A stretch of DNA of 63,993 bases, the filler included, from Diploschistes diacapsis (lineage: Eukaryota): the NCBI GenBank assembly GCA_023645945.1. It is 8 parts of 8 records of this genome, joined end to end, with 100 filler letters (N's around TTAATTAATTAA, not from the genome) between each part and the next. Parts side by side here need not be neighbours in the genome. Positions count along the whole stretch, not along the records: positions 8,182 to 16,252 come from JALAIB010001202.1; 7 more parts are not named here. One strand, written 5' to 3'. The position numbers and the translations under genes were made by a program. Positions 11,953-53,206 of the stretch are shown one piece after another (within the stretch, counting starts at the first letter, position 1; every line of letters starts with the position of its first letter). The notes beneath the pieces were generated by a model that saw only the letters and a list, made by a program, of their open reading frames with translations, did not search any database and was not told the DNA's origin.

Positions 11953-12367
11953 GTATTTCTCTGGGCGTTCAGCTCGCGCTTGTGGTGAAGCAACAACTTC
12001 AAGTTACCTCCTTTGGCAAGCCTGAATTGCTCTACAATTTTATACTACAACTCCTCTCCATCGTTAGAAATGATGCTAATGTCAAGTTCATTGAAATCAA
12101 TAAACTTGTCACCAATCTCCTGTAAATACTGCCCATAAGCCGAGAAACTTATTTTCACCGTCTTCTCAAGTCCATGTTGTACCTATATTGTTACTCTTCC
12201 TATGGTCGATAGAACGATCTTCCTCTTGTGTTAGGATGAGAATGGGCCCCTGTCGACATCCGTTTGAGATTGATTCTTCTTTGCTTCTCCTTTACTGGTG
12301 GCTCGACCGCTCGGAGGCCCCGTAAGGGGAGTCAAGGCCTCTAGGTGGTCGTGCGCTTATTCCTCCG

Positions 12368-14108
12368 TTATGGCAGGAATAGAAGTAGAGTTGGGAGATT
12401 TTGAGTCTCCGCATCATGTGGCTTCAATAACTGAAATGGGTCAAAATTTGAGCCCTGAAGGTGCGGTCTAAAGTATGGTTTGCTTAATCTGGTTATTCCA
12501 ACCATTACGGCATTATAGGTAACATACTGTATATTTGGATTCTGAGGCGCTGTCTGCTGGTTACCGCAGTTTCTGCAGCGAAGTTTTTTGACGACATAAA
12601 TACCGGTTGTTCTGTGCCACCTTAGGTCGTACATAGTCTCTATTAAGCTCTCTGCATGTTTTGCAAAAGACTTCAATGTGAGGCGGCATACGAGGATTCC
12701 TAACGATCTGTTGAGAAATTCGTGTATCATTTGATATTTTGGGACCTGAGTTTGGATCAGTACCAGAACGCGAGGAAATGGAGCTATAGGTCTATTGCTA
12801 ACCTGTCTTGCTCCCTGGTATGGGTTGGGTTAGTACTTCTACTAGTGGCGTTCCTTGCTCCTGGGGATGTGTTGTAGGATTCTCTCTAAATGCGCTAGCA
12901 TTTGTCACTTCAGAATTACAAGATGTCCTTGGCTCCTGTGAACATAAAAGTTGCCTAACTGGCGGTGGCTGATCGCTGAGCAGAAAAGAATTATTATCAC
13001 CTTTCGATAGGATCCTCTTCGCTGCTCTCCTTGCATTCCAAGAACCCGGCCGGTATAAGATTCCAGTTCCTCCTGGCGCCTGCATTAAAGAGGGATCTAG
13101 ACCTTTAGCAGCCATAACTGATGTGAGAGCATTTCGAGCTAGTGTTTGCTGGCGTGGGTAATGACTAAGCTTCGGAAATCGATTGATGAAAGACCAATGC
13201 AACTCTTGATAGAATCCATCCTTGTACGTTAGTCCGGCGAGTTGATGAGCAATAACCATTAGACGGTTCTGCCGACTCGCATACTTTTGTCCCCAAGGAA
13301 AAAAAAAGACCTGTGGATGCATAGCAAATATCACAAAGCGGATGAATTTGCCATGGACTCCTAGGTTATCTGATGCCCATTCTAGATATATTGAAATATC
13401 GCTGTGATTATCCCATAAGCAAAGCCGCTCAAGGTTGCATATTTTCAGCATTCTTTGCTGAATAGCTCTGTCTAAAGGATCTCAACTTTTGCTTCCATAT
13501 TCTTTCGTATCTTAAACAACCAGTCTTCGTGGCAGGCCAATATATTTACCGGATAGTCAACCAAGCCATCTGTAATTTCACGTCGCGCGAGATGGTCGAA
13601 GATCAATGTTTTTCCGTTGACAAACGTGTTGGCCATGATTAACGCGATACAAGGAGTTGTCGGATCAGCAGTCTCCCCATGATATGGATACTGAGTGACG
13701 AAGCTAGGATTGTGTAAATGATGTGCAATTGGCCAATTAAAGTCTCCGGATGGGGGAACAAGCTCATCTTTCGCCGCGGTGGGCTCTAGAGATGGGATTC
13801 CATCTTCTGAAATCGAGCAAATTTTTGCAATTGAATGCAGCTTGTTTTGATTTGGATTGCCTTGAATCGGCATAGGAAAGGCTAGATCCGTAATAAATTG
13901 GAAATTCACCTTGATCTAAGGTAAGTCAAGCCTCTAAATCACGAAAGTGTGATTCAAGTTCTCTCAGCCGTGCAAGGGAATTCTCGCTTAGGCAGTCCTT
14001 GGGCTCATCTAACCAAAGATTGCCAAAAAGTCGGTACTTGGCGCCAGACAACTGAGTACCATCGATAGCTTCATTGGTTTCTACTGTTTGTGGGACAGAC
14101 TGGACCAT
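12368..14108 (-). pseudogene. Fragmented accessory gene, possibly a UDG-like fold with a C-terminal Zn ribbon
   Basis: Four colinear minus-strand ORFs separated by stops or frameshifts; motifs HLHNP, IFDHLARRE, MEAKVEIL, FVIFAMHPQ, CRNCG. Confidence 0.45.
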
Positions 14109-14701
14109 GTTATATATGGTGGCTCTTGCTCAAAGCGATAGACTCGCTGAACCGGGAGGGGGGGTCGTGTTATTCTGAGAAGAGAATATAAGACTAAATG
14201 TAGGTAAGTGTTGGAGCAAGCACGAGATGTAAGATGCCTTGTGGGTAGAAGATATAGGGCTGGCAGGCCGTCAGGCTAGGCCCGATAGGCCGCCATGCCA
14301 GACACTCCCAATGGGGGGATGATGCATTCCAACAGTAAGCGTCAAGAGGAAAGCTTCCTGGGTGAGAAAACGGCTTGCTTATAGATTAGTCAGAACACGG
14401 ATCAAAAAAGGGGGTTACCTACAATAAGAAATAATTCAATTTGAAGGTCTATCTGGATGGGATAAGAATTCGATTATACTATGTTCTGCCGCTTTACTAG
14501 AACCAACCTCTTTAGTATTGTAAACACTAGACTGCATTGGTTGGTTCTCGGCTAACACAAACAAGTATAGAGAGTATCCGTTAGAGAAAGAATTGAAAAC
14601 TCGATAAAAAAGAGCGCGGATCGAACATCAGCGTTCTAAAGAAAGAACCAATAACAGTTTTTAGTATTTATATCTTGATTAAGTAATATAGATCAAATAT
14701 T

Positions 14702-14839
14702 GGTCGGTTAGCTCAGTTGGTTAGAGCGTGGTAAGAACTATTGCGAATGCTAGTTTCGCCTCTGACACTAACTCATCCAGGTGCTAATACTTCCTGTTAT
14801 GTTACGCCAAGGTCATGGGTTCGACCCCCATACTGACCA
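14702..14839 (+). tRNA. tRNA-Ile (anticodon AAT at 14786-14788) with two interruptions: 50-nt GT-AG insert 14731-14780 (positions 28/29) and canonical 14-nt intron 14790-14803 (37/38)
   Basis: After removing both inserts: acceptor GGTCGGT/ACTGACC, D arm GCTC-AGTTGGTTA-GAGC, anticodon arm TGGTG-CTAATAA-CGCCA, variable loop AGGTC, T arm ATGGG-TTCGACC-CCCAT, discriminator A; intact A and B boxes. Confidence 0.93.
14731..14780 (+). other. Candidate spliceosomal (U2-type) intron within the tRNA-Ile anticodon stem
   Basis: 5' site G|GTAAGA, branch site ACTAAC at 14767-14772 (also CTGAC at 14762-14766), 3' site CCAG|GT; precise removal restores the 5-bp anticodon stem. Confidence 0.8.
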
Positions 14840-14846
14840 TATAATA

Positions 14847-14854
14847 TTTTTTTT
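14847..14854 (+). terminator. RNA polymerase III oligo-T terminator
   Basis: T8 run starting 8 nt after the tRNA discriminator base. Confidence 0.8.
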
Positions 14855-16895
14855 GGAATCTAATGCTTTTGCAAATCGTAGGAATAGATAATGGCCGACT
14901 ATCGGCTAAGGATAATATATAGTACTCACTTAAAGTCATGTATCCCAAATACAGAAGAAATAAATTAGTTTTGCTAGTCAGTTGAAGGAGAATATGTTAT
15001 GAACGCATATTGCTAAAATTGCAACAGTTCTGCAACGGATGTTTCTACTCGGCGGAGAATTTGACAACTTCTATCCAAATAATTGTTCTCCATGAAAACA
15101 TTAGCCCCTGGCATTTAAATTGCCTTAGCTTAACATATAAGATAGCCACTGCACTCCGGCAATGTCTCGTTCGCAACAGAGAATAGACCGACATACACAA
15201 GACGAATTCGCGTACGTTGGTATAGAGTGAGTATATTATCTGCCTTCTTTATCAGTAAGCGATATGCACAGCAAACCAGTGTTACATTATCTCGTCTCGC
15301 TGCCTTTTGATTGTATTTTTCACATTCTCGAGATAGTTTGAATGTGAACAGGAGTTTTGCCAGATCGAGTGTATTAAGTCTAATCTAATGCGCCAGTTCC
15401 GTTTTGAAATATAATTCCACCGTAGTATCTTCGCTTCTCATTGGAATTTGGGTTCTCCGCTCCAAAGGTGTGATATTCGTACCTCTAGGGACGGCTTGTC
15501 TATCTAGAATCTTGTGTCTATTATAATGATAATTGGAAGCGATCTACCTCTACAGACAATGAAGAAACTGCAACTTCGAAATTTGGAGATATTACAAACT
15601 TGATAGAACGCCCCTACAGGAATAGGTGCTACATTACCGGGGGCTGAGCCTGATCCGGAAGGATTACGTGTAACTGGGCATCATCTGTAGGCTGAATGGT
15701 TCAGATTCGAAAAGGTGCAGAACTAACTAGGTGGGAAGTAGCGAGGTATAAATACTTCCCTAGGTCAGCTCTACAAACCTTTGAACCCACAAACGTTCAG
15801 AATGTTCCAATATGCGAGTAATAAAAAGATATAATAAATAAATGAATCTTGTTCTTCATATAATAAATAATAAAATAAATAAATCAGTCTTGTTCTTTAC
15901 ATAATAAATAATAAAATCGGATTGAATATAGTTTTTATAACCGTCCGCGATTAATAAACGTTAACGACCCGTTGTAACAGCGAGGGTTAGTGCCTAATAG
16001 GTAGCAACTATCCTACTGAGCCAAAAGATTGAATATAATGCTTTTAAGAACCCCGAAGCACTGTTTCCCTATTATAACGTGTTTCACGGGGATTCCGGCC
16101 ACCCCCAGTGTAATACGCAGAACCCAATAAGGGCTACTAGGGGGTATGCCAAGCATATACCAAGGCCCGCTAGCGTGTTCTTATATAAGAACAGAGTTTT
16201 CGCAGATAGAAATAGTTTTTTAGAAATTATTTTATTAATATATCTATCGTTTNNNNNNNNNNNNNNNNNNNNNNNNNNNNNNNNNNNNNNNNNNNNTTAA
16301 TTAATTAANNNNNNNNNNNNNNNNNNNNNNNNNNNNNNNNNNNNNNNNNNNNGTGGAGGGCTTGGAGAGGGTCGAGCGATGGAGGTAGGGAGGGGAAGGG
16401 GAGGAAGGATGTTTGAGATTGGAGGAGCGTGGGAGCGAGGGACATGAGTGCATTTGTCGAGATTATATGTACAGGGCGGATTGGGGATTAAAGCGGAGGG
16501 AGAGCGCTGTCAATGGGGGCATCTTTACTTCGTGGTTTTAGATACATGGCGAGGCCGTGCCTCGGCGTCGCTACTTGGTATAGCCAATCGAGAAGTATTT
16601 ACGTAGAACAGAGCACTTGTCTCTTGCAGAGAAAACATAGCGCGAAGGGACAGTAAGCGCCACAGGTTGAAGAAACCCCTGATCCATCGTGATCAAGCTT
16701 GCAATGTAAGCCACGGTTTGCAATGCCAGCGTAAGGAGCCCTTATCCACAGAAGCCTGCCTGCGTGAACGGCGCTGCAGCTCAAGAAAAAGCCAAGGGCT
16801 GGAAGCTGGCCTAAGTATGCTTGGGTATGAGCCCGGGATATCTTCGCAGAATCAAGACAAGGAAAGCTAGTGAATCGCGCCGTGTGAAAATGAAG

Positions 16896-19800
16896 CTACT
16901 GAGTGCCATTTGGTAAGTTTTCGTCAGAATAACGATTGGGATCCGCCTGGTCAAGGGGATAATTGTAAGCGTGGCCTGCGGTGGAGCTCTGGAAGGGGAC
17001 GGTAGTGGGTAGCGGATCAAGATCGTCATCTCCATAGTCATGAAGTTGCATCGGAAAGCGCCGTATGAAAATGCCTGAGAGGTGGGAATAGCGTGGTATG
17101 ATGTCAAGGACGTCGGAAAGGCGGATCCAGAAGACGTGCTTTAGGTCATTGAACTTGGCCTGTGCTATCTTCATTGCTGCCAGTTCGTCGTTGAGTCGAT
17201 AATCAAGAGGATGACAGTCGTAACGGGTGAGCTGGATTCGAACGACTCTCCAGAGATCGAAGCGCTGAGTATCTGTGAGCTCACGCTTGGGCCAGGCAGT
17301 ATCTACAGAACTTGTCAGTATGATCGATATGCATAATGTATATGAGCATACATTGCGAAAGAGTCAGGTCGATCAAGCCCAACAGTGGAGCAACCTGAAT
17401 ATTTGTAACCCATTGCTCTTCCCGCAAATGTTCGGCGCAGCTTGGATCCAACTTAGACCCTTTCACGAACATCAAAGGAAGCCACCATTGGACTTCTTCG
17501 GGGTCTCTGGGTTTAGCACCCAAACCCGCCGCCCAGCGTAAACCATTTGGAAGCCTATCCCTGCGTTGACGTTCCTCTTCCTGTTGCTTACGAAGCCTTT
17601 GGCGTTCCTGATCCTCTTCACGCTTCTTTTCGAGTCTCGCAGCTTCTTCTTGTTCCTCACGCTTCCGCTTCAAGCGAGCTGCTTCCTCTGCCTCAGCTTG
17701 CTTCTGCCTTCGACGTGCTTCTTCCTCAGCCTCAGCCTGCTTCTGTCTCTGACGCGCCGCTTCCTCCTCCGCCTCTTTTTCGCGCTGCAAGCGGGCCGCC
17801 TCCTCCTCTTCTCGCTTCTTTCGGAGGAGAACTGCCTCGGCTTCGGCCTCTTGCTGCTCCTTGAGACGTAAAGCGTCCTCCGCGTCTTTTTTCTGCTTAA
17901 GGAGGGCCATCTCCCTTTCTTGCCGCTTCGAAAGCTCTGCAGCTTCTTCTTCCTGACGTCTAACCTGGACTTCATGCTCCAGCCTTTTCTTTATCGCACT
18001 TTGAGCAGCCAGCTGGTCTTCGGTGATATGTGCGCTCACCGAAGCATTGTCAAAGTCGTCCTTAGCAGCAACAGGCGCTATGATAGAGCCAGGCTCGTCG
18101 CCAACACCTCTTTTGTTGCCGTTCTGTTGTACGTCGGGCGCCAGTTCTAGCGGCTGTTCCATTTCGTGGTCTTGGGTTTGCGCTTCTTTTGCGGGCTTCG
18201 GCGTAGACTTGTCGGTACCTGACGATTTGCCTTTGGCGGCAGGCAGCGGAGAGGATGTTGAATCACGAATAGTGGGGGAAATCTTTATATCTTTGATAGA
18301 GGAAATAGAACCTCCCATGAAAGCGACAGGGGCAGAGCCCGACGACGATGGAACAGTAGCCATGTTTGCTATACGTGCAGGTCCTAATTGTGCCGAAGTC
18401 CTTGGGCTTTTATCTTGTACACTGCTATCAGAATTAACCCGAGGGCGTTTTGGCTTGTTCGACTCGGATTGCTTTTCGAACTGTTTCGACGAGCTCAAAA
18501 CTCGTCCATTGGGGGGAGTGTCACTGCGCCGTGCACGCTTCTTGGCAGTCGCGAATTCACTTTTTGATTCAATATTTTCCTCACGCTTTGCCTTTGTAGA
18601 TGCTAGTTCCTTAGTAGAGCTAGAACGCGCCTGTTCCTGGGTCGAAGATGTAGAACCCATCGAGATCAAGCTATTTCTCCGCTGCTTCTTTTCCTGGTCG
18701 TTCTTCATGTCTTTTCCCGATACCAGCCTTTTCCTCGGCTTAAGTACGTCCTTTTCTGCATCGCTCAAGGATCGCCTTTTCTCGCCATTAGCAAGTCTAA
18801 GAGGGGAAGCTTCACGATCTGAGACCGCAGTTGAACCTTCACGGCTGTCATGCCTAGGAACTTTCAAGTGTCGTTTGCTGCTATCTTGAACCTTGTCCAA
18901 GCTGTCTCTGTCTCTATCGCGTTCTCTGCGTACATGGCCGTTCTTGCTCTCCGCGCTGGCCCTTTTGCGAATCCAGGAATCCTTAGCTGTCAAAGTGGGG
19001 CTGGATGACTTCTGCGACGCACGCAGCGGCGAGGTGGACGATTTCTGGCGCAAGGCTTTCTTCGCTTCACGGCTTTGAGGAGACTTGTGAACTGCGTTTG
19101 GCGATTTACCTCTAGTACGGTCTTTATGCTTATCGTATGCAGACTTGAGTAACCGGTACTCTTCTTCCCATCCTACGCCGCGTCTTTCTTTAGCGAGCTC
19201 ATAGTACGTGAGTTTCTTGTGGATTCGACGAGTGGGATCAAAGCTCGGTTGGTCCAGCAATAGTTTAAGAACACCAATATTATTGCGCCCGATGGCAACG
19301 AGCATAGGAGTATTGAGGCCATCCTTAAATTTGCGAAGTGGATCAGGGTCTGGATTGGCTTTGCCCATCGCGAACAAGAATGATAGACACAGCTCATGCC
19401 CACCCTTTGCTGCAGCTAGAAGCGCCTCGGGATCCCCCATCGGCTTCATTTCCAGGATGTGAAGAACGGCTTCGCCATCGCCCTTGCCTGCTTTCTCTCT
19501 GAGCATCTCAGGTGTAGGGTTCAACCAAAGTAGATCGTTTCGAGATGGTTCGCTCCGAGCTGGCCTGCGTCTTGAGGTAGGAGGCGGTGGGCTCCTAGTA
19601 CCATGAAGCGAAGGTGATGCCCGAGGGCTTCTCCCGGATAAGCTTTCCTTCGCCGTGTTGGGCGGCCTTACATCTTCGGAATGACGACGGCGGTCGAAAC
19701 GCTCGCGTGCTTTCTCAAGAACAGCTTTGATGTCTTTCGCATTGTCACCCTCTGGATCCACCAAGTCTATCGGTTCTTCACCTTTGGCATTGACCTGTCT

Positions 19801-20976
19801 TGGATTGACGCCCGCCTTCACCAGCAATTTGACAACGTTGAGGTGGCCGTTCTCGACAGCGTCGATTAAAGGCGTATCTCTGTCCAGGTTCATACAATCT
19901 GCTTTACAGCCATGCTCAAGTAGCACTCTCACAATCTCCGCATTCCCCTCCAGAGCCGCGATTTGCAAGGGAGTGTTTCCGGCGTTGTCTTCGTCGTCGA
20001 TATCCTCTGGGCGGTCTTTCAGTCTTGCGACAACAGACTCGACATCTTCCACCGCACAAGCACGAGCAAGCAAAGTTCTGCCGTTTTTATCTCGCAGCTT
20101 CCTGTGAGGTTTCGGCATACTTGTATCCTCAAAAACAGTAGATCGTTTGGGATGCGCAGAAGCTTGGGGAGATCCGCTATCGTTCGACCTGGTGTCTTCA
20201 GAACCCCTTCTTTTGGTGCCAACAGCAAGAGGTGGTGGTTTTCTTCGCTTGTGTGTGCTGCTAGGGTTCGAGGACTGCGTTGACAGCGCTCTGGGCCTCT
20301 GGCGGGCAGGGGACTCCGAACGAGGGTTGCTCACCTTGCGCGGCTCGGTCGTGGAACGCTCTTCTGACCGTCTTTCTCGTTTAACGCGCCTCCTATGTAG
20401 TCTCTCATCCGCCTCATCTCCCGAAATCTTGCGCTTTCTCGGCACGGAAGCGCGAGAGTGGGTGTCGCTATCAACGGAGAGCTTTGACTTGGACTGTGCG
20501 GACTCGGAGTTGGCGCGACTAGCAGGTCTTTCTTCCTGGCCCCGACCAGGCGAAGATCGGGTCGAGCTCAGATTACTCGAATTATTCGTTTCGGTCAATG
20601 CCCCAGGTTTTTTGTGCTTTTCTTGACCGCTGTGATTACGGTCCTTGGAGACTTGCAATGAATCGCCATTCGTATATTTCAACCCAGATTTCGCACGCAC
20701 ACCGTTCTCATGCTTTATCGCCCTCTTAGGGACACCGCTATCCAATCCTTCCTCTTTACCAGGCATTACAACAGTTTCCGCCTCACTATCGCTCCTCCCA
20801 TCCTCGTTCGCATTGTCGGCATGACGACTCACCTTATCTTTAGTGTTCTCAGTATCAGCCTTTGCTTGCTGGCCCGTCTGCACTGTGCACTCGCCACCCG
20901 TAGCAGTACCCTCATGCTGGATTCCATTCTGATATATCGCTGAAGGCCCGGAGTCTTCACTAGAATCATTGTTCAT
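16896..20976 (-). CDS. HOS4: Ankyrin-repeat protein, Hos4-like (Set3 histone deacetylase complex subunit); intron 17351-17303
   Basis: >1200-aa ORF with ankyrin repeats (DKNGRTLLARAC, DNAGNTPLQIAALEG, DRDTPLIDAVENGH), long S/R/K low-complexity regions and an E/K/R/Q coiled coil; GTATGC...CTGAC...TAG intron joins the last exon ending LPNGTQ*; in-frame stop at 21031 favours ATG 20976. Confidence 0.7.
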
Positions 20977-21571
20977 GACGATCGCATCTGGCTCGATGAC
21001 CACTTTAACTTCATCCTGGGCCGTTGTGGATTAGGCTGCAAGCTGAGGCGGTGGAGAGTAGCGACCGTGGAGTTTTAGCTTCCACAGACACTAATCATAC
21101 AGCGAAACGGATGCGATATGGGATGAAAAGTTGAATCGGATGCAGCATATAAAGATGACGACTATCGCTACAAGTCGGTCTGCGCTGCCGAGGATGTGGT
21201 GGGATCGGTGGTGTTAATCTGGTAAGAGGCAATTAATAATAGAAAGTCGTGAGGGAAAGCGGGAAGAAGAGTAAGAGTAGATGCAAAGTGCAAATCACGT
21301 GCGCCAGCCCTAAGGTACATTATTATTGCAGTAGAGGAGGATTCTTTTCTGCGCCACTGGGGCACTCCTTTTCGATCAGGGAACGGTTGAGATACGAAAA
21401 AACTGCACCAGCCAATCAGCATGGATAAAACTGCCAAGACTCTTACTTGTCACCTTTTAGGACTAGCGGAAGCGACGCGATCTATTGACATGCACTTTTA
21501 CTTTCTTCACTTTCCATAATCTGACATCTTTCAACAGCCCACGGCCACCCAGTGCTCGATCCGACCTCAGA

Positions 21572-30502: not shown

Positions 30503-31967
30503 ATGGCTGTCGATAGCATCCTCCTTCAGGGCGGGGCAGGTCATTGTCCATGAGGCCGATGATGCCGTTTCTACCAAGACGTGTGATATCCTCATCGAGG
30601 GCAACAAAATCACCAAGGTTGCGCCTTTAATCACAGCACCGAGCTCAGCCACCCGCGTGATTGACTGCAAAGCTCGTTTGATCAGTCCAGGTTTCATTGA
30701 TACCCATAGACACACCTGGCAGACCCAGCTGAAGGGAAGGCATATCGATGAGACTCTATTTCAGGTAGGTCATTGCATGGCCAACCAAAAGATTAATGGC
30801 TGACAAAGCTTAGTACATGCCCACTGGCAACGTTAGATGTTGTTCCTGCGAAGCAGGAGAGAAAGGCTGAACATGTCGTAGATGGCTTGCAAGTTTTACT
30901 CCGCCCATGACGTCTTTTTGGGCACGCTTGGTGGTGCACTTGAATCCATTGATGCCGGAACTACTGCTATCGTCGATCACGCTCACATGTGCTACTCGCC
31001 CGAAATCGCGCTTAGCGCAGCAGCGGCTCTGGAGGCTTCCGGAGTGCGCGCAACGTACTGCATCTCGCCTACCTTGCTCGTCAAGCAGTGGGGGCCGAAG
31101 CTTGAAGTCGATCAGGATGTAATCCCAAGCTGGTGGGACGAGATGTACTCCAATCTGGCCCAGGAGCTGCGCAAAGGGTCTGGAAGGGTCAGTCTAGGCT
31201 TGGGGTTTGACGTATTCCAGATAGGGAAAGAAAAAACGGTGGACCTGTTCACGAAGGCCCGCAAGGAAGGAGCAAAGATCATCACTTCCCATAGCGTCTT
31301 CGATACGTCCAGCTTGCAGTTTCTGATAGTCCTTTTTGAGCAGATTGCTTACTACCGCAAGGTTACGATCCCCCTGTCGAGCATGAAGGAATGGGGCCTA
31401 CTAGGTCCCGACATCCTCCTCAGCCACTTCAACAACGCTACGCCCGAGAAGTCTGCCGACCTCGAAGCGGCTGGTGGCCACGTCTCTTGGAGGCGAGGCT
31501 AGCGCTCCAACACGCTCGTTCCGTCTGCAACAAGTCTTTCGAGGACAAGGGCCAGATTGCACCAAACCTGAATATCAAAGCCGTCGAAGTCTTCAATCTC
31601 GCCACGATCAAGGGCGCCCGTGCCATGGGAATGGAAAAAGAAATCGGATCGATCGCAGAGGGCAAAGCTCGCGGACCTTGTCATCTGGGACATGACGACC
31701 CCGGGCATGGTGGCGGCGGCCCATCACGATGCCGTTGCGGCCATCTTGGTCCACTCGAGTGTGAGGGACGTCGACACGGTCATTGTGGACGGTATCGTGA
31801 GGAAGGAGAATGGGAAGCTCAAGGCTTTCGATAACAAGGGCAAGAAGATGGAGTGGGCCGAAATTGCCAAGGAGTTTGTGGCTAGTCGCGAGGAGATACA
31901 GAGGCGGGCGAACAAGGTCGACTACCAGCAGGCATCGAAGGATCTTGCGGCAAGCATGGGTCAATGA
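30503..31967 (+). pseudogene. Metal-dependent amidohydrolase (SAH/MTA deaminase-like), disrupted
   Basis: PGFIDTHRHTWQ HxH motif, ESIDAGTTAIVDHAH, LATIKGARAMGMEKEIGSI, DVDTVIVDG; frameshift in the G run near 30530, apparent deletion near 31488, frameshift near 31667. Confidence 0.8.
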
Positions 31968-33419
31968 GTGAGAGCTTTGGAGGGCTTAGTCGACGGTTAC
32001 GTCGTGTGCTTAACAATACTCTTCATCTACTCATATAAACATTCATTCCGAGCAGGAAACACACATCTAACAACATGTTTCTCCCGGCGAGTCCCCTCCT
32101 TCATAGACTCCATTGCTAGCCGGCCCGCTTAGCGCCTGCTGCTTTTAGTCTCTTACAAATGCACTTTACTTAGGCCGGCAGCTGTTCATGTGAAGGCCAT
32201 CACCGTTCCTATAGCATCCAGCCTAGTCTACCTCTCGTGCGATTCGTAAGGAGGCACAACAAGCTACCTAAAACGGACATTCGGTCTTGGTAACTCTTGG
32301 TGCGTTATCCAGGTATTTATACCGAAGCGTTTTCTTGATTTTTTGATGTGGCTATTATCTCGTTTATCTGCCACAACCCAACCCATCCATCTTCCGCAAG
32401 CGCCTTGTATGTGCCATACTATACAGTATAAATTGTCTTCATGACGACGCCCAACTTCCCTCCTCCGGGAAGCAATCAGTACATCCATCGATACCCTAAT
32501 CTCGATGCTTGATCCTGGCTCTTCATTTAAGTTGGCGCGGTGCAGAGAGATATAAGCAGTATGGTGGTGCAGTATCAAACCNNNNNNNNNNNNNNNNNNN
32601 NNNNNNNNNNNNNNNNNNNNNNNNNTTAATTAATTAANNNNNNNNNNNNNNNNNNNNNNNNNNNNNNNNNNNNNNNNNNNNTTTAAAATATTAAAAAAAT
32701 GCTTTTTTATTTTTTTGATTACGTAATAAAAATGATTGGCCTCGCTATCTTCGCCGGTTTCGTCTGTTTCGTTTGTTTCGATAGGTTTCGCTAGACATTT
32801 TTTTTGCTTGAAAAACTTTTCGTGATGATAGCGTGCACCGCGTATTTAGCGACCATGTGATTAAGTGTTATTGGTGTCAGTTTACATACAAGGAATGGCT
32901 TGGAAGTGACGAGGTCGGAACCTCGGATCGTTACAATATAATTGCTGTACCCGTAACGGCGCTTTTTGGCGGGCACCATTTTTTAACCCCATATTAGGCA
33001 CTTAAGGAAAATTTAAGAAATTTCGAAAAGAAGTTATCTTCATCCGTAATGCTTTAAAACTTTTTAAAATATTTTCAATTTTCGATTTGCCACATTTCTG
33101 AGGAAGATAGTTGGATATAAACTTAATCGATTTTAGTGAGCAATCGGGTGTGACTTGACTACTTTTGGCACTGACTTTTAATTCTTAGACCCCTAAATTT
33201 CTCTAGAATGAATTCATACGGTGTCCAAAATCTAATGAAAAATAACCTTCAATAGATCAGAATAGTAGAAAGAAAAATAATTAAAAGGTTAAATTAAGGG
33301 AACGCATTCAGATTATTATAAGCCACGTAAGGCGCGCTTATGGCCTTAATTAATAAAAGTTTGAAAGGATTTTGCCTGTCTCACTCTCTTTTATTCTTTT
33401 TTAGTAGTTAGTCCTAACA

Positions 33420-34650
33420 TCATGATCCTGCCCGGGGTATAGCCATCTTGTCACATTATCTTATTCCACTCCTTACTTTTTTGGATTATTTTAGTAATTC
33501 ATATTAGTTCTTTGTCTTCTATTCAGGGACACTGCATTCAGTTTCAATAGGATCCATGTTCTAATACTTATCATAGTAATCATTCAATAATCTAGAACAT
33601 TTGGTTATTAACATATTTTTTAATGATATTTTATTAGGCTCTAGACAAGTCTCGAACCTCCTAAAACCTTTGAAGTCTTATCAATAGTTGATGAATCACT
33701 TGTTCTAACCTATTTAAATTAATACTCGTATATAATTTTAAGACATAAACCAAAGCTTCACTAATTAGATTTTATTAAAAATTTTATTATTTGTGGCACT
33801 CGGCTTAGCTACACCGAATTCAACAGACGGATCATCTAATAGCTTTGTTAAGTCTTTTACTAATGTCTAAACCTATAATGTGACCTTCTTATCTCGAGCA
33901 GAAAGTTGACATTATCAAATAAAGCTACAATAGAAAACCAGGAATCAACTCGATTTCACAGGTTATCATACTTTGAAGGAAGATAACTCTCATTGTGAGT
34001 ATAATACACTTTGAGGGTAATCATTCTCAATTCTATGGTGGTCACCGAATAATTCCTCGCCGAACAGTACATAGGGTCCCTTCACCTCCTCAAAGAACTA
34101 GATGGAATATTCTATCACGAACCTATTCCCATGATCATTATCCATTACTAGAGAATGGACTGGAAGAACTACAACAGCAATCATACAATCGGCCAAGCAT
34201 AATCGTGTTAAAACGCGAGGTCACGGCCTTCATAGTTTCCTAAGATGATGGAAAACATCTATTGTCTTCTCAAATCCTCAAATAATCTATATCTAGAGCT
34301 AACTATCACAATCAACCCTAGTGCCTCCGCATCGAGATCTATCATAGCGCAACAATAATATCATTCCCATATACAGCTTATGTTTCCAACTTCCCATACT
34401 GCAACTCCTCGGAAGGCAGGGCAAGATAGAAATAATCTAAACCTTTGAGTATGCATATTGATAGGCATGCGAAACATAAAAGAATAACTGGCGCCAAGAT
34501 AGCCATTTGGGCCAGTATTATAGGAGATCAACCTAAAGTCATATAAGAGGAAAGAACTAAGAACCTTTGTGAAGGCTTTATAAAGCGGCTCCATATTGCG
34601 ATGCAAGAGGAAACGAAAAGAGATTAACTTGGACCTGAATCTGATGCCCT
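33420..34650 (+). pseudogene. RIP-like AT-rich gene relic of unknown family
   Basis: Coding-like Leu-rich frames broken by many TAA/TAG codons; TpA-rich with surviving CpG. Confidence 0.3.
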
Positions 34651-35250
34651 AGATAGTATGAGCATTATGGCAGAATGAGGTTCTATAATCGAGGCCCCTT
34701 GTTGAGAGCTCATTAATAAAAACGTGCCTTTTTGCTAATAACAAAATATCTGTCGAGATAACATACATAACGGATCGATTTGAATCATCGATCTGGATCT
34801 ATTAACTGGATAGTTATTACTTAACAGCACCTTACGCTTTCGTGTTAATCTGAAACTTTTTGACGTTATAAATAACCGTTATTCTTTATAGTGTATTCTT
34901 TTTAGTGGCGTGGGGTAATTAAGTACTAAAAGCCAATATGCTATTAGACTTACGAAGATAAGATATAAAAAATTTTTAAAAATTTATATATATTTTTATA
35001 AAAATTCAAAACCATTAGACTTTCGAGTCAATTATTAATGGTAAATCTTTTTTTAAATATCGGATGTTACTAGTACTCCAGGGGCAAATAAATTACGACT
35101 TATAAAATTTCAATATTAGCTAGCTTAGCTAGACTGAATGACCTTCTAACCTTACTTTTCCCACGTCTACTTGAACTTACGAATTATCATCTGGGGATTC
35201 TGCTTAGATATCTAATATCACGAGTTTCTTGAGTTCAGAAATGAGCAGCT

Positions 35251-36471
35251 ATGTTATCCAGCGACCATTCTCCTTCGCGAGCGCGAAATCGCTTGTTCTT
35301 TCGACCTATAACACCGCCACCACGCCCAATATCGAATCTGCAGATATCTCCGACGAAGCGTAAAATTTCAAATTCAGCGCAGACTTCCCCTACAAAAATA
35401 GTCGCACGAGCACCCTTGGCGCTTATATCAAATATGGCGATACCGACCCAGCCAAAACCCGAAAGCTCACAAAACGCATCGTTTAATGCTATTAAAGAAC
35501 GATTGCTCAAAACCGTCGAGGCTAGGAACACCAATCAGACTTTATCAACAGAGATTAGCGTCCTGGATTTTGAGCTAGTTGAGCTCAATGACCGCGAGTA
35601 CGAAGAATTGGAGGCAATAGTGGGCGACTCCGACCAGAAATTTCCGAGGATTACCTACGATTCTTTGAAAGGGAAAATGAGAATCAGTTATGTGCCGTCA
35701 CATTTGCACGAAGAGATCGCCGCTCAATTTCCGATGGAACATGCAATATCGAGATTGAATTTAACATCTGAAATAAGAGCACGGACGGGAATATCAGGAA
35801 GCCCTAGAATCAGATTCACTGGACATCATAAGCGCACCAAATTAGAACCGGATGCCGCATTTATGTATCGGAACGGTCAAGACAGGGAACGAAAATTATC
35901 CGCGGTTGTGGAAATAGGTTACAGTGAGCCCTACGAAAGCCTACGCGAGGTTGCTTCGATTTGGTTAAATGGCCAATCAACTATCCAGTTGGTCGTGCTA
36001 CTCAAGATTACTGAAACCCCTGAATGGACTTCCAAGTCTAGCGTTGGCGACCGTGATTTAACCCAAATCAAAAGTAGCTTGAAGTCCGAGAAACTCGATT
36101 TCGAACAAATCGAACCTCGATCAGATACAATTGTTCATCCGTTATCATTCGGGAATTATGGTATACCTTTGATTAATCAAATGACAATGTCTCTTGAATT
36201 ATGGAAAAGAGATGCTAGTGGGAAGCCAACGCAAAATGGAAATCGAATGTGGTATGTTCCGGGTTGCACTGACCCGTTGTTAAAATATGGAGATTTGTTT
36301 CCAATTTCTAAAGAAGATGGGGGCGATGTACCGTTTCAACTTTCTTGGCAGAAACTCGAGATGGCGTTAATTGAAAGCAGACTCGACTTCGCTGATGTCC
36401 GTTATGGACAAGTTAGAAACTGGGTACGGGCTCGCGAATCAGATAGCACCGACGATGTTTCTGATTTGTAA
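35251..36471 (+). CDS. Uma2-like PD-(D/E)XK restriction-endonuclease-fold protein
   Basis: Intronless 406-aa ORF with PRITYD, PSHLHE, KLEPDAAF, AVVEIGYSE, LREVASIWL and LVVLLKI, the motif order typical of Uma2-type nucleases. Confidence 0.7.
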   Translation: MLSSDHSPSRARNRLFFRPITPPPRPISNLQISPTKRKISNSAQTSPTKIVARAPLALISNMAIPTQPKPESSQNASFNAIKERLLKTVEARNTNQTLSTEISVLDFELVELNDREYEELEAIVGDSDQKFPRITYDSLKGKMRISYVPSHLHEEIAAQFPMEHAISRLNLTSEIRARTGISGSPRIRFTGHHKRTKLEPDAAFMYRNGQDRERKLSAVVEIGYSEPYESLREVASIWLNGQSTIQLVVLLKITETPEWTSKSSVGDRDLTQIKSSLKSEKLDFEQIEPRSDTIVHPLSFGNYGIPLINQMTMSLELWKRDASGKPTQNGNRMWYVPGCTDPLLKYGDLFPISKEDGGDVPFQLSWQKLEMALIESRLDFADVRYGQVRNWVRARESDSTDDVSDL

Positions 36472-49801: not shown

Positions 49802-51931
49802 AAAAGCAGTTTTCGGATTCGCGACGGAAGTCTGAACGTAGGTGCAGGCATCCTTTGACAGCTCAGTTTGATGCTTTCACACGATGAGGGCCGCGGGTGG
49901 AATATCAGCCAAAAGCTATTCCAAAGTATATAATATAGAAATCGTATCAGTGTCGGAAACCTTCCCCCCGATCATCGGCATCAAGCACGACGATCGATGA
50001 AAAGCGAGTACAGGGCTGTGTTGCTTGGACATTCTGGATGTCCCTGCCTGAAAGGATGGGCTCAGAAATTTCCATATACAACAGTAACCCCGGACTCTCT
50101 ATTTGAACCTGCTTCCTACTATGAATAGTAGGTAAGGGGGAGCAGGTTTTGGTCTTTATTTCTCGCTAGGGTAGCAATATGCACTGCAACACCCTTTATC
50201 AAAATCCTGTGGTCATTCAAGTAAGGTCCCCACGCGCTTGTTGTTTTGGTCTCGCGACCTTGGCTGACCCCATTAAGAGGACAACCCGAGGAAGGTGCCC
50301 CGACCTGGCGTGAGCCCCAATACGATTGGGCACCCGCCGCAAACGAAATTGCAGGCCGATACGGAACCATATCAGGGAGAGGAATCGAACCTCCCAGCCA
50401 CTCCCCCAAGTCAAAACAATTCAACACAAATATAAATGGATGTTGTGGTTTGTGCACCACAACAAAGACCTTGAACATAGTCCCAAGGGCAAAAGCCAGT
50501 TGGATAAAAGTCCGCTGCAGCAGATGCCCCGGGTCAGACTTCAATCACTGGAGGCTGGAGACGATCATACATGAGATAAACTGCTCCAGTAGACGCTCCT
50601 AACCGACCAACGTCCTTTAGTGTAGTCCGAATACATAAGCTGAGAGAATAAGAATTCCAATACAGCAAATCTCCGGGCCTAACCTCAGAAGCGGTAGAGG
50701 TAATCATGCGATTGAGAGCGACCTCTCTAGCAGATGCTCCGTTTCGCCCAAATTGTCTTGCTCGGTCCATATAATTGATAGTGCTGTAGACATCTTGTCT
50801 AGAGCAGCTATCGAGGATATAGACTGAGTTGGGCGCACAGTATCACCAAGCCTCTCTCATGGCCTGATAGCTGTGCTAATGTGTCCATGTGCTTCATCAA
50901 GTGAGCGAAGGGGTGACCCTTCTCCTCAATATCCGAAGGCGCGCCCGCATGTTTTCAAAGTGTTGCGTGTCAAAATATTAGCAACGAGATGCAGCTTCCT
51001 GCAGGTCATTACGTAAGGGTACAATGGCCGGCTCGTCTTAGCTTCACCCGAAGGCTAGTAGACTCCAACACCACGATGAGGTGCGAGCTATTCGTTGGAG
51101 ATGTCAAAGTAGGGCCTTGTCTGTAGTGGAGGTTTTCAATCGTTCGGTAAGGTGTGCGATGGTGTGCGATGGTAGGCATTGAAGTGATAGGTATGGAGGA
51201 AAGATGATGAGAAAGAAAAACCAAGCTGATGCAATATGGCGAGAAGAAACAACGATTGTAGTTCAATAGAGATGGATTGAGTGCAGAAGGAAAGAGTGAA
51301 AGGAGGATGGGAAGCTGGCCTTTAAGTATGGAAAAAGACAGCCCTATGCAAGAAGATGCGCTAGTTACCGATGTGGTGGGGAAATTGCATTCATTTCGGC
51401 AGTCTCGGGACATCGGAAGAACCGGCGATACCTAGCTAGCTAGACCTTTTTTCTGGACTCAATTAGGCACTGCATGCTGCATTAAAGCATCATGGGGCTC
51501 GGCTCTGCGAGTAGATGTTGTAGGGGTGACATGTCAGAACAGCCTTTTATTGCAGTCCGCATCGCAAGCCAAGATGGTGATCGTGTAAGCCAATAACGCC
51601 TTGTTGTTAAGTCGAGATTACATGCTGCCCCAGGTGTTGGTCGCTTATGGAGCTAGCATTATGTTGGTGTGAGAGGTCCATTAGTCTATTTTCCGGTGCT
51701 AACACTTTCCTCCGTCCGTGGATAGATCGGATGGGATGGGCGTCCTCGTTCGGCCTTGAACTTTGCGAGTTCATCTGGCGTATTTGAGTATTATGAGTAT
51801 CTAGGTTCCCTCGAGGCCATGCTATAAGATTGAACAGCCCTCATCTCCCAAATCATCGACTACCCTCACTACGGACCAGTCACGTTTGAATCTACCTCGA
51901 TAGGGTCAAGACAAGTAAAGGGAGCAGCACC

Positions 51932-53206
51932 ATGAAACTCTCACAAGAAGTCGCTCGTCCGGCTTTCTCAGTGCCGGACTCGCCCCTTATCAGCTATGGC
52001 CGCCCATTCCCTGAGCTATGCCGTAAATACGCCGACGAGACATTCAAGGCATTAAAGATCTACGTTCTCATTTCCCGTACACTGGCCAACAAGACCCCCG
52101 CTTTGAAGCAACTGCAGGAGGCCCTTGGCGACAAGATCGTGGGCACCAGGATCGGAATGACACCACACACCTTGTTCAGTGAGTGTTTGGAGGTCGTCCA
52201 TGAATGCCGTAGACTTGAGGCCGACTTCATGATCACCGTGGGCGGGTCAAGTCTGACGGATGCCGCTAAGCTGGCCGCTTTCGTGAGTTTATCTTCACTC
52301 CATCGTTCCATTGTTCTGATAGTCTTCGGATAGGCCTTGGGCAATGATGTGGAGAATGAGAATGACCTCGTCAAGCTCCCTTACAACCTTAGAAGCGTAG
52401 CCGCAGGCGTTAAGCCCCCCAAGTTTCCGTTCATTAGCGTCCCGACTTCCTTATCGGGTGCGGAATACAGCATATACTCGGGCGCCACTCGAGACAGCGA
52501 TCATTGCAAAATGCAATTCAGTGCGCCTTGCGAAGGACCGAGGGTCATCATCTTGGACCCCGAGCTTTGCCTCCATACACCAGCAGACTTTTGGCTGAGC
52601 TCTGGCGTACGGGCGATTGACCACTGCACAGAGTCCTATTGCGGACTGAGGCGTATCAAAGAGGTCGACAAGGCATGTGTCGAAGGCCTAAAGCTGCTGG
52701 TTCCTGGGCTGCTCAATTCAAAAGCCAACCCGTCAAATCCCGAACCGAGGCTTGAGTGCATGTTAGGTGTCAACCATGCAATGACTCCTTTGCGATACCT
52801 TGTCTTTGCCGGAGCAAGCCACGGAATTGGCCACAACTTGGGTCCACTGGGTGTCGGCCACGGCGAGACGAGCTGTATCTTACTTCCTGCAGTATCCAAG
52901 TACAATGCAAAGCGAGGCGCGAACGTTAATGAGCAGAAGGCAACCGCAGAAGTGTACTGGGCCATCCCGGAAGCAAGGACTCTGTTCGAAGCCGAAGGCC
53001 TGAAGCAGGAGTCAGCGGATTTGGGGGACCTCCTTCACGTTATCTTCAGAGCGCTGGGAATGCCACGGACCTTGACTGAAAAGGGGATTGGCAGGGACAA
53101 GTTTGATCTGCTAGCCAAGAATAGCTTGGAAGACGTGTTGGTCAAAACCAATCCGGCGAAACTGGATGAGAAGGATGTCAAGGAGATACTTGAGATGTGT
53201 CTCTAA
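51932..53206 (+). CDS. Iron-containing alcohol dehydrogenase / maleylacetate-reductase-like protein; intron 52283-52333
   Basis: ITVGGSSLTDAAK, VPTSLSGAEYS, IILDPEL, SGVRAIDHCTE, GASHGIGHNLG, GVGHGETSCILLP. Confidence 0.88.

Follow-up and report, generated by a model that had tools for sequence, protein, structure and literature searches.

In textbooks and reviews, tRNA introns and spliceosomal introns are treated as separate worlds. For fungi and animals, tRNA introns are reported from 37/38 exclusively, and those of eukaryotes that rely on the splicing endonuclease (SEN/TSEN) are described as lying "invariably" at position 37/38 in PMC10485636, which also describes multi-intron tRNA genes in Archaea and noncanonical tRNA introns in some red algae. 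On the side of the spliceosome, mRNA-type introns are found in the genes of U6 (a Pol III transcript), U1, U2, U5, and rRNA, according to PMC5855946; the U6 snRNA introns of fission yeast and other organisms were described by Tani and Ohshima (1989, 1991), as cited there. Lichen-forming ascomycetes carry spliceosomal introns in their nuclear rRNA genes, as described by Bhattacharya et al. (2000) and cited in PMC5855946 and PMC8527467, and the latter paper states that a 57-nt lichen spliceosomal intron is correctly spliced by yeast from Pol I rRNA transcripts. The term "tRNA" has no occurrence in PMC8527467, and "spliceosomal intron" has none in two large tRNA reviews (PMC4090602 and PMC10275265). 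A search of open-licence PMC papers and bioRxiv preprints gave no report of spliceosomal introns in tRNA genes, and a report elsewhere is possible. A canonical tRNA intron and an mRNA-type intron in one and the same tRNA therefore appear to be undescribed, each kind being known alone.

The window analyzed in this study is the whole stretch of 63,993 nucleotides from Diploschistes diacapsis. Its sole Rfam tRNA match lies at 14702 to 14839 on the plus strand (44.5 bits, compared with a gathering score of 29), and the alignment places 75 nt in the anticodon arm, where the model expects 11. No other tRNA was found in the window by Rfam at E-values up to 5 or by a separate scan for T arms with acceptor strands, and default ARAGORN reports no tRNA in it. 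When the two inserts are cut by script at their coordinates, ARAGORN recognizes a perfect 74-nt cloverleaf of tRNA-Ile(AAT), with an anticodon stem of TGGTG/CGCCA and the loop CTAATAA. When the segment 14731 to 14780 is cut alone, the program reports tRNA-Ile(AAT) with a 14-nt intron immediately 3' of A37 (14789), which is the canonical 37/38 site that the earlier note had assigned to this intron.

All parts of the gene are on the plus strand. Exon 1 (14702 to 14730) comprises tRNA positions 1 to 28 in the Rfam and ARAGORN alignments, i.e., the 5' strand of the acceptor, the D arm with the A box, and the first two bases of the anticodon stem. It is followed by the candidate mRNA-type GT-AG intron of 50 nt (14731 to 14780), which interrupts the anticodon stem on its 5' side at the 28/29 boundary. 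The middle exon, which was predicted in the earlier note to be only 9 nt long and to carry the anticodon, is indeed found at 14781 to 14789 (positions 29 to 37) when ARAGORN is run after cutting, with the anticodon AAT at 14786 to 14788. The canonical tRNA intron CTTCCTGTTATGTT (14790 to 14803, 14 nt) separates positions 37 and 38 once the 50-nt insert is cut, and exon 3 (14804 to 14839) contains positions 38 to 73, namely the 3' strand CGCCA of the anticodon stem (14805 to 14809), the variable loop, the T arm, the 3' strand of the acceptor, and the discriminator base A. The B box GGTTCGACCCC is located in the T arm within exon 3, as indicated by Rfam, ARAGORN, and the T-arm scan.

Type 2 (tRNA) genes of Pol III carry A and B boxes of known consensus, T runs are Pol III terminators, and upstream TATA elements are a feature of Pol III genes in fission yeast. 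The A-box and B-box regions of the window gene agree with the Rfam consensus. A run of eight T residues, a putative Pol III terminator, is located at 14848 to 14855, 9 nt past the discriminator base, whereas the longest T run within the gene is three. A TATA-like stretch, TATTTATAT, was noticed by eye at 14665 to 14673, 29 to 37 nt 5' of tRNA position 1; it is a possible upstream Pol III promoter element, although this is uncertain, as the context is AT rich (GC 0.40) and a chance occurrence is possible. Given the two internal boxes and the T8 run downstream, Pol III would be expected to transcribe the whole 138-nt body.

The raw sequence can also be read with a single intron. ARAGORN with intron search calls tRNA-Asn(GTT) with a 61-nt intron here; however, the anticodon stem of this candidate contains three G.U pairs, its intron is at 32/33, and approximately 9 bases are pushed into the variable loop, whereas with two introns the sequence forms a perfect Ile cloverleaf and the second gene described below is Ile(AAT) once its GT-AG inserts are cut. 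We rejected the Asn candidate, whose probability we consider negligible. Elsewhere in the window, permissive ARAGORN settings gave a "tRNA-Phe" with a 749-nt intron (51910 to 52755, minus strand), which has mismatched stems and no Rfam support and was classified as a false positive.

The 50-nt insert carries the signals of an mRNA-type intron: the 5' site GTAAGA (14731 to 14736), the branch motif CACTAAC (14766 to 14772), and the 3' site CAG (14778 to 14780). From the putative branch A (14771) to the end of the insert there are 9 nt, with the terminal CAG included. Exact excision of 14731 to 14780, as cut by script and read by ARAGORN, rebuilds the 5-bp stem TGGTG/CGCCA. The style of the introns of the host was taken from the protein genes of the window, in which 31 candidate introns that join ORFs were listed heuristically. 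Thirteen of these are 42 to 58 nt long; the starts are GTAAG, GTATG, GTGAG, or GTACG, a CTRAY motif is found 5 to 28 nt from the end, and the ends are AG. The commonest 5-mer start is GTAAG (8/31), and the 50-nt insert is midrange in both length and signals. The pattern GTRNG..CTRAY..YAG is matched by 45 of the 2,046,096 45- to 60-mers of the window (2.2e-5). The insert is not repeated in the window, where its best other match is 11 nt. Since just 3 of the 31 host candidates contain TTTT, the absence of T runs from the introns of the tRNA gene is no argument for Pol III read-through. Judging by the signals, the length, and the exact restoration of the stem, the insert is probably removed by the spliceosome.

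A direct repeat, GGT, flanks the 50-nt insert (14730 to 14732 and 14780 to 14782), which means that four cuts restore the tRNA equally well, one of them being GT-AG. The insert at 28/29 of the second gene has a GGT repeat as well, and the 10/11 insert of that gene is flanked by AG. Such flanking direct repeats could be a trace of intron arrival.

The named homologues of the largest ORF come from Lecanoromycetes (Trapelia, Circinaria, Gyalolechia, Xanthoria, and Teloschistes) at 34 to 46% identity, and the closest matches reach 60 to 64%. A sequencing run labelled as a lichen metagenome contains 98% of the words sampled from the window and may be its source. An ankyrin-repeat ORF of 1240 codons is located at 17281 to 21003 on the minus strand; its homologues carry the NCBI name "Set3 complex subunit with deacetylase activity," and a 49-nt intron candidate is found in its region at 17303 to 17351. 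A subthreshold Rfam match to the C/D-box snoRNA family snR64 was observed at 12095 to 12206 on the minus strand (26.3 bits, compared with a gathering score of 38; E-value, 2.3). The block 32001 to 36000 is AT rich (GC 0.35 to 0.40, compared with 0.49 for the window), and 31503 to 35250 contains no ORF of at least 200 codons.

A diverged second gene, here called L001, was obtained from one scan of a metagenome collection with a pattern composed of the end of exon 1, GTRNG, 25 to 55 free bases, YAG, and exon 2. The scan yielded a single contig, which contains a tRNA-Ile(AAT) gene with three inserts on the minus strand. The first insert (1047 to 1095 of the contig, 49 nt, GTAATC..TACTGAC..CAG) interrupts the D stem at 10/11, a site inside the A box. 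The second (54 nt, GTACGT..ATCTAAT..CAG) occupies the same 28/29 site as the insert of the window, and the third is a 17-nt canonical intron at 37/38 with G third from its end. A run of six T residues follows the tRNA gene. Rfam finds no tRNA in L001 at E-values up to 0.01, and ARAGORN reports nothing in the unspliced sequence but Ile(AAT) after both GT-AG inserts are cut; the gene was first recognized by eye, and excision at coordinates then confirmed it. Because the pattern itself demanded GT and AG at the 28/29 insert, these letters are ascertained rather than independent evidence; it asked for neither the D-stem insert nor the branch motifs, and the canonical intron and the remainder of the tRNA were likewise outside it. 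Two pattern scans of a prokaryote genome collection gave no match, one of them with an abbreviated pattern over 596 billion bases; these searches serve as chance controls only. Three further features of L001 were observed. The terminal CAG of its 10/11 insert recreates most of the A-box sequence beside exon 2, TATA-like stretches are present 38 to 44 and 14 to 19 nt upstream of position 1, and exon 1 is set apart from the A box by the D-stem intron, so that one must ask at which point Pol III would begin transcription.

The mature tRNAs of the window and L001 agree in 67 of their 74 positions. All seven exon differences are in stems and preserve pairing; three are double compensatory changes, i.e., G-C to T-A at 6:67, T-A to C-G at 50:64, and G-C to A-T at 52:62 from the window to L001, and the change of A to G at position 49 gives G.U. 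On the other hand, the introns of the two genes do not align outside GTA.. at the start and ..CCAG at the end, and the flanks share no similarity, so that orthology has no support from synteny. None of the three GT-AG inserts (one in the window and two in L001) has lost its 5' site, branch motif, or YAG. The conserved, covarying exons beside freely drifting introns that retain their splice signals point to selection on the spliced product, and this pattern of divergence argues for selection, unlike that of a decaying pseudogene. The earlier note had also claimed selection. The claim itself is supported by the pairing-preserving exon changes and the diverged introns of L001, whereas the argument first offered for it, one possible base pair, is weak evidence. 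Taken together, the features of the locus make it very likely that the window tRNA-Ile(AAU) is a real, selected, doubly interrupted gene. The shared 28/29 site may reflect parallel insertion at a hot spot, a comparison that is based on one readable relative.

A closer relative is represented in sequencing run X2 by two short contigs, one of 117 nt without gaps and one of 121 nt with 4 gaps. Both are colinear over 14706 to 14822, which indicates that this relative keeps both inserts. They carry 11 (in the 117-nt contig) and 7 differences, of which three are located (14742, 14745, and 14754); these are all inside the 50-nt intron and away from its signals. Over the 1001-base stretch compared, 43 differences come on top of those listed, and some of the others may fall in exons or splice signals. 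The read depth of X2 is approximately 245 to 258 over the exons and 98 over the intron, which suggests that the exon sequence is common to other copies or to other organisms. One X2 contig skips 53 bases of the upstream flank (14481 to 14535), an apparent insertion or deletion difference between the relatives. Runs X3 and X4 contained next to nothing of the stretch examined.

The depth in X2 bears on an explanation in which the locus is a dead or dying copy. According to this explanation, an mRNA-type intron was copied into a redundant tRNA-Ile(AAU) gene, possibly through a reverse-splicing event at the tRNA with subsequent reverse transcription and recombination; the yield of tRNA was lost, and the exons and the canonical intron are intact only because the event is recent. 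Fungi usually have several copies of tRNA-Ile(AAU), which would make one copy dispensable, and the extra exon depth hints at further copies. In addition, the X2 contig with 11 differences in 117 positions is near the divergence of the flank, most of the positions not being given. However, the same site is occupied in L001 although introns and flanks are unalignable, the exons of L001 differ by pairing-preserving changes only, three of them double, and not only do all three GT-AG inserts keep the 5' site, the branch motif, and YAG, but both loci also keep a T-run terminator. Decay would not give such a pattern unless two insertions were independent and recent. We therefore consider the dead copy unlikely, although it has to be taken seriously.

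The tRNA-like sequence could also be embedded in a Pol II transcript, either a noncoding RNA or an untranslated region, to which the GT-AG intron would belong. This would agree with the normal action of spliceosomes on Pol II transcripts, but no plus-strand ORF of at least 50 codons exists in 13300 to 17300, a run of T residues follows closely on the discriminator base at each of the two loci, and there is no reason why the intron of a host transcript should rebuild a tRNA stem with single-base precision, as is seen three times in the two loci. Such an origin is highly improbable in our view. We favor instead, as somewhat more probable than all else considered here but with clear reserve, a working nuclear tRNA-Ile(AAU) gene with two unrelated introns and a full two-machine pathway, in which transcription, both splicing reactions, and their order are inferred. 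In this pathway, the spliceosome would excise the 50-nt GT-AG intron (14731 to 14780) from between positions 28 and 29 in the nucleus. Until this excision, neither the D arm nor the 5-bp anticodon stem would form; its result would be an ordinary intron-containing pre-tRNA. The 14-nt intron would then be released by SEN/TSEN through cuts at 37/38 and at its own 3' end; the enzyme would use the tRNA body as its ruler, probably along with the C32:G14801 pair, and a tRNA ligase would join the halves. The order would be enforced twice; i.e., the insert breaks the structure that SEN reads, and the two machines are probably in separate compartments, the nucleus and the mitochondrial surface.

The first of these two constraints was examined by nearest-neighbor folding. 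In the full 138-nt precursor, the predicted probabilities of the pairs 27:43 and 28:42 are 0.0 and that of the D stem is 0.001, whereas the pairs 29:41, 30:40, and 31:39 are still above 0.9. When the 50-nt insert is removed, the anticodon stem reaches 0.86 to 0.97. Forcing the SEN-competent fold on the full precursor costs 14 to 17 kcal/mol (−21.9 or −24.3, compared with −38.6 kcal/mol). The same behavior is predicted for L001, in which the D stem is itself interrupted by an insert. These folds ignore both the tertiary contacts of tRNA and proteins. As for the second constraint, PMC10485636 describes a four-subunit endonuclease that reads the whole tRNA body, with subunits in contact with the D arm, and places it on the outer mitochondrial membrane in budding and fission yeast, with the same expected in other ascomycetes. 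If SEN is mitochondrial here as it is there, the nuclear spliceosome would act before export and the endonuclease after it. The most likely order is thus the spliceosome first and SEN second, as judged from predicted folds and from the location of the enzyme in other ascomycetes.

The gene might also work in a different manner, with SEN cutting while the insert is looped out, so that the order is not obligate, or with the insert removed by machinery other than the spliceosome; even when these two options are counted together, we regard them as quite improbable. The anticodon stem has an unbroken 3' strand, its three inner pairs hold in the full precursor as given above, the folds leave out proteins and tertiary structure, and SEN also cuts non-tRNA substrates (as described in PMC10485636), all of which would favor a looped-out insert. 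Nevertheless, the SEN-competent fold of the full precursor is far above the minimum in energy with the D stem predicted to be lost, the additional GT-AG insert of L001 interrupts the D stem, and a tRNA cut first by a cytoplasmic SEN would need reimport to meet the spliceosome. With respect to other machinery, a strict bulge-helix-bulge motif (two 3-nt bulges with the splice sites and a 4-bp helix between them) was found in none of the three GT-AG inserts, with boundary shifts of up to 2 nt allowed; both canonical 37/38 introns, in the window and in L001, also fail this test, which thus rules out only the archaeal form. Furthermore, an insert of 50 nt is too short to be self-splicing.

The pairing of the 14-nt canonical intron was considered separately. 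G14801, the third-last base of the intron, faces C32 (14784), and TGTTA (14795 to 14799) is complementary to TAATA (14785 to 14789) of the anticodon loop, with one G.U pair counted, so that the capacity for both pairings that the earlier note had reported is present at these coordinates. In a chance test of 200,000 trials each, with shuffles of the intron and draws from the local composition, G at −3 occurred with a frequency of 0.14 and 0.22, respectively, a 5-bp complement upstream of −3 with 0.058 and 0.045, and both jointly with 0.0045 and 0.0099. Jointly, the pairing features exceed chance, although not overwhelmingly. TGTTA is present in tandem (14795 to 14799 and 14800 to 14804), and the two copies span the 3' end of the intron. 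In nearest-neighbor folding, the favored register pairs TAATA with TGTT|A38, the terminal copy (−25.3 kcal/mol, pair probabilities of 0.48 to 0.83), whereas the register with the C32:G14801 pair has −22.9 kcal/mol and a probability of approximately 0.04. The favored register is predicted to place the 3' splice site inside a helix, and SEN is known to use a bulge at this site. The 17-nt intron of L001 ends in TGTT and has only the terminal copy (TGTT plus A38); there, the register that hides the 3' site is predicted at more than 0.9, compared with 0.0 for the pair of C32 with G(−3). Of the anticodon-intron pairing that the earlier note had taken, along with a folded tRNA body, as what SEN recognizes, the capacity of C32 to pair with G at the third-last position is therefore upheld, with G at −3 also in L001, whereas the helix of TGTTA with the anticodon loop is neither conserved in L001 nor the predicted favored register.

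Beyond this locus, it is possible, although we put it forward only tentatively, that in a lichen-forming (or related) ascomycete lineage spliceosomal introns have colonized nuclear tRNA genes and been maintained there, which would leave the main isoleucine tRNA dependent on both the spliceosome and the tRNA endonuclease. If this is true, this tRNA would be the first known example of a Pol III tRNA that needs both machines, and the spliceosome would be able to serve tRNA maturation. Splicing capacity and the supply of a core component of translation would be coupled, a link already proposed for the spliceosomal introns in lichen rRNA genes. It would also mean that mRNA-type introns are able to invade and persist in Pol III genes beyond U6, and that a built-in order of processing can arise from structure and cell compartment alone. 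Since default ARAGORN missed the gene of the window and Rfam missed that of L001, standard tRNA finders would miss such genes, and the tRNA gene sets of some fungi would be undercounted. The precursor would furthermore be a compact natural substrate for the question of how spliceosomes find uncapped Pol III transcripts.

Compared with the canonical 37/38 introns of the SEN/TSEN pathway, the 14-nt intron of the window has the same site, G at −3 opposite C32, and a complement to the anticodon loop, and the 17-nt intron of L001 has the same site and G at −3. The difference is that the precursor of the window is predicted to be unable to fold the body that SEN reads until an unrelated intron has left the anticodon stem. 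The archaeal and red algal tRNA genes resemble this gene in having more than one intron per tRNA, introns within stems, and very short middle exons, whereas their introns are removed by one enzyme at bulge-helix-bulge motifs; here, none of the three noncanonical inserts has this motif, and all three have GT, a branch motif, and AG. The spliceosomal introns of lichen rRNA genes come from the same kind of organism, as the proteins of the window are closest to those of Lecanoromycetes, and are likewise short spliceosomal introns in non-Pol II genes; their hosts are Pol I rRNA genes, in contrast to the tRNA gene described here. The introns of the U6, U1, U2, and U5 genes share with the 50-nt insert the GT-AG ends, the mRNA-like signals, the unconserved interior, and a host that is a short, highly conserved noncoding RNA gene, and U6 is also transcribed by Pol III. 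On the other hand, tRNA is outside the spliceosome, and the rationale of reverse splicing into a neighbor in the active site is not obviously applicable to it. Unlike U6, the RNA of the window would also need the protein-only tRNA splicing pathway.
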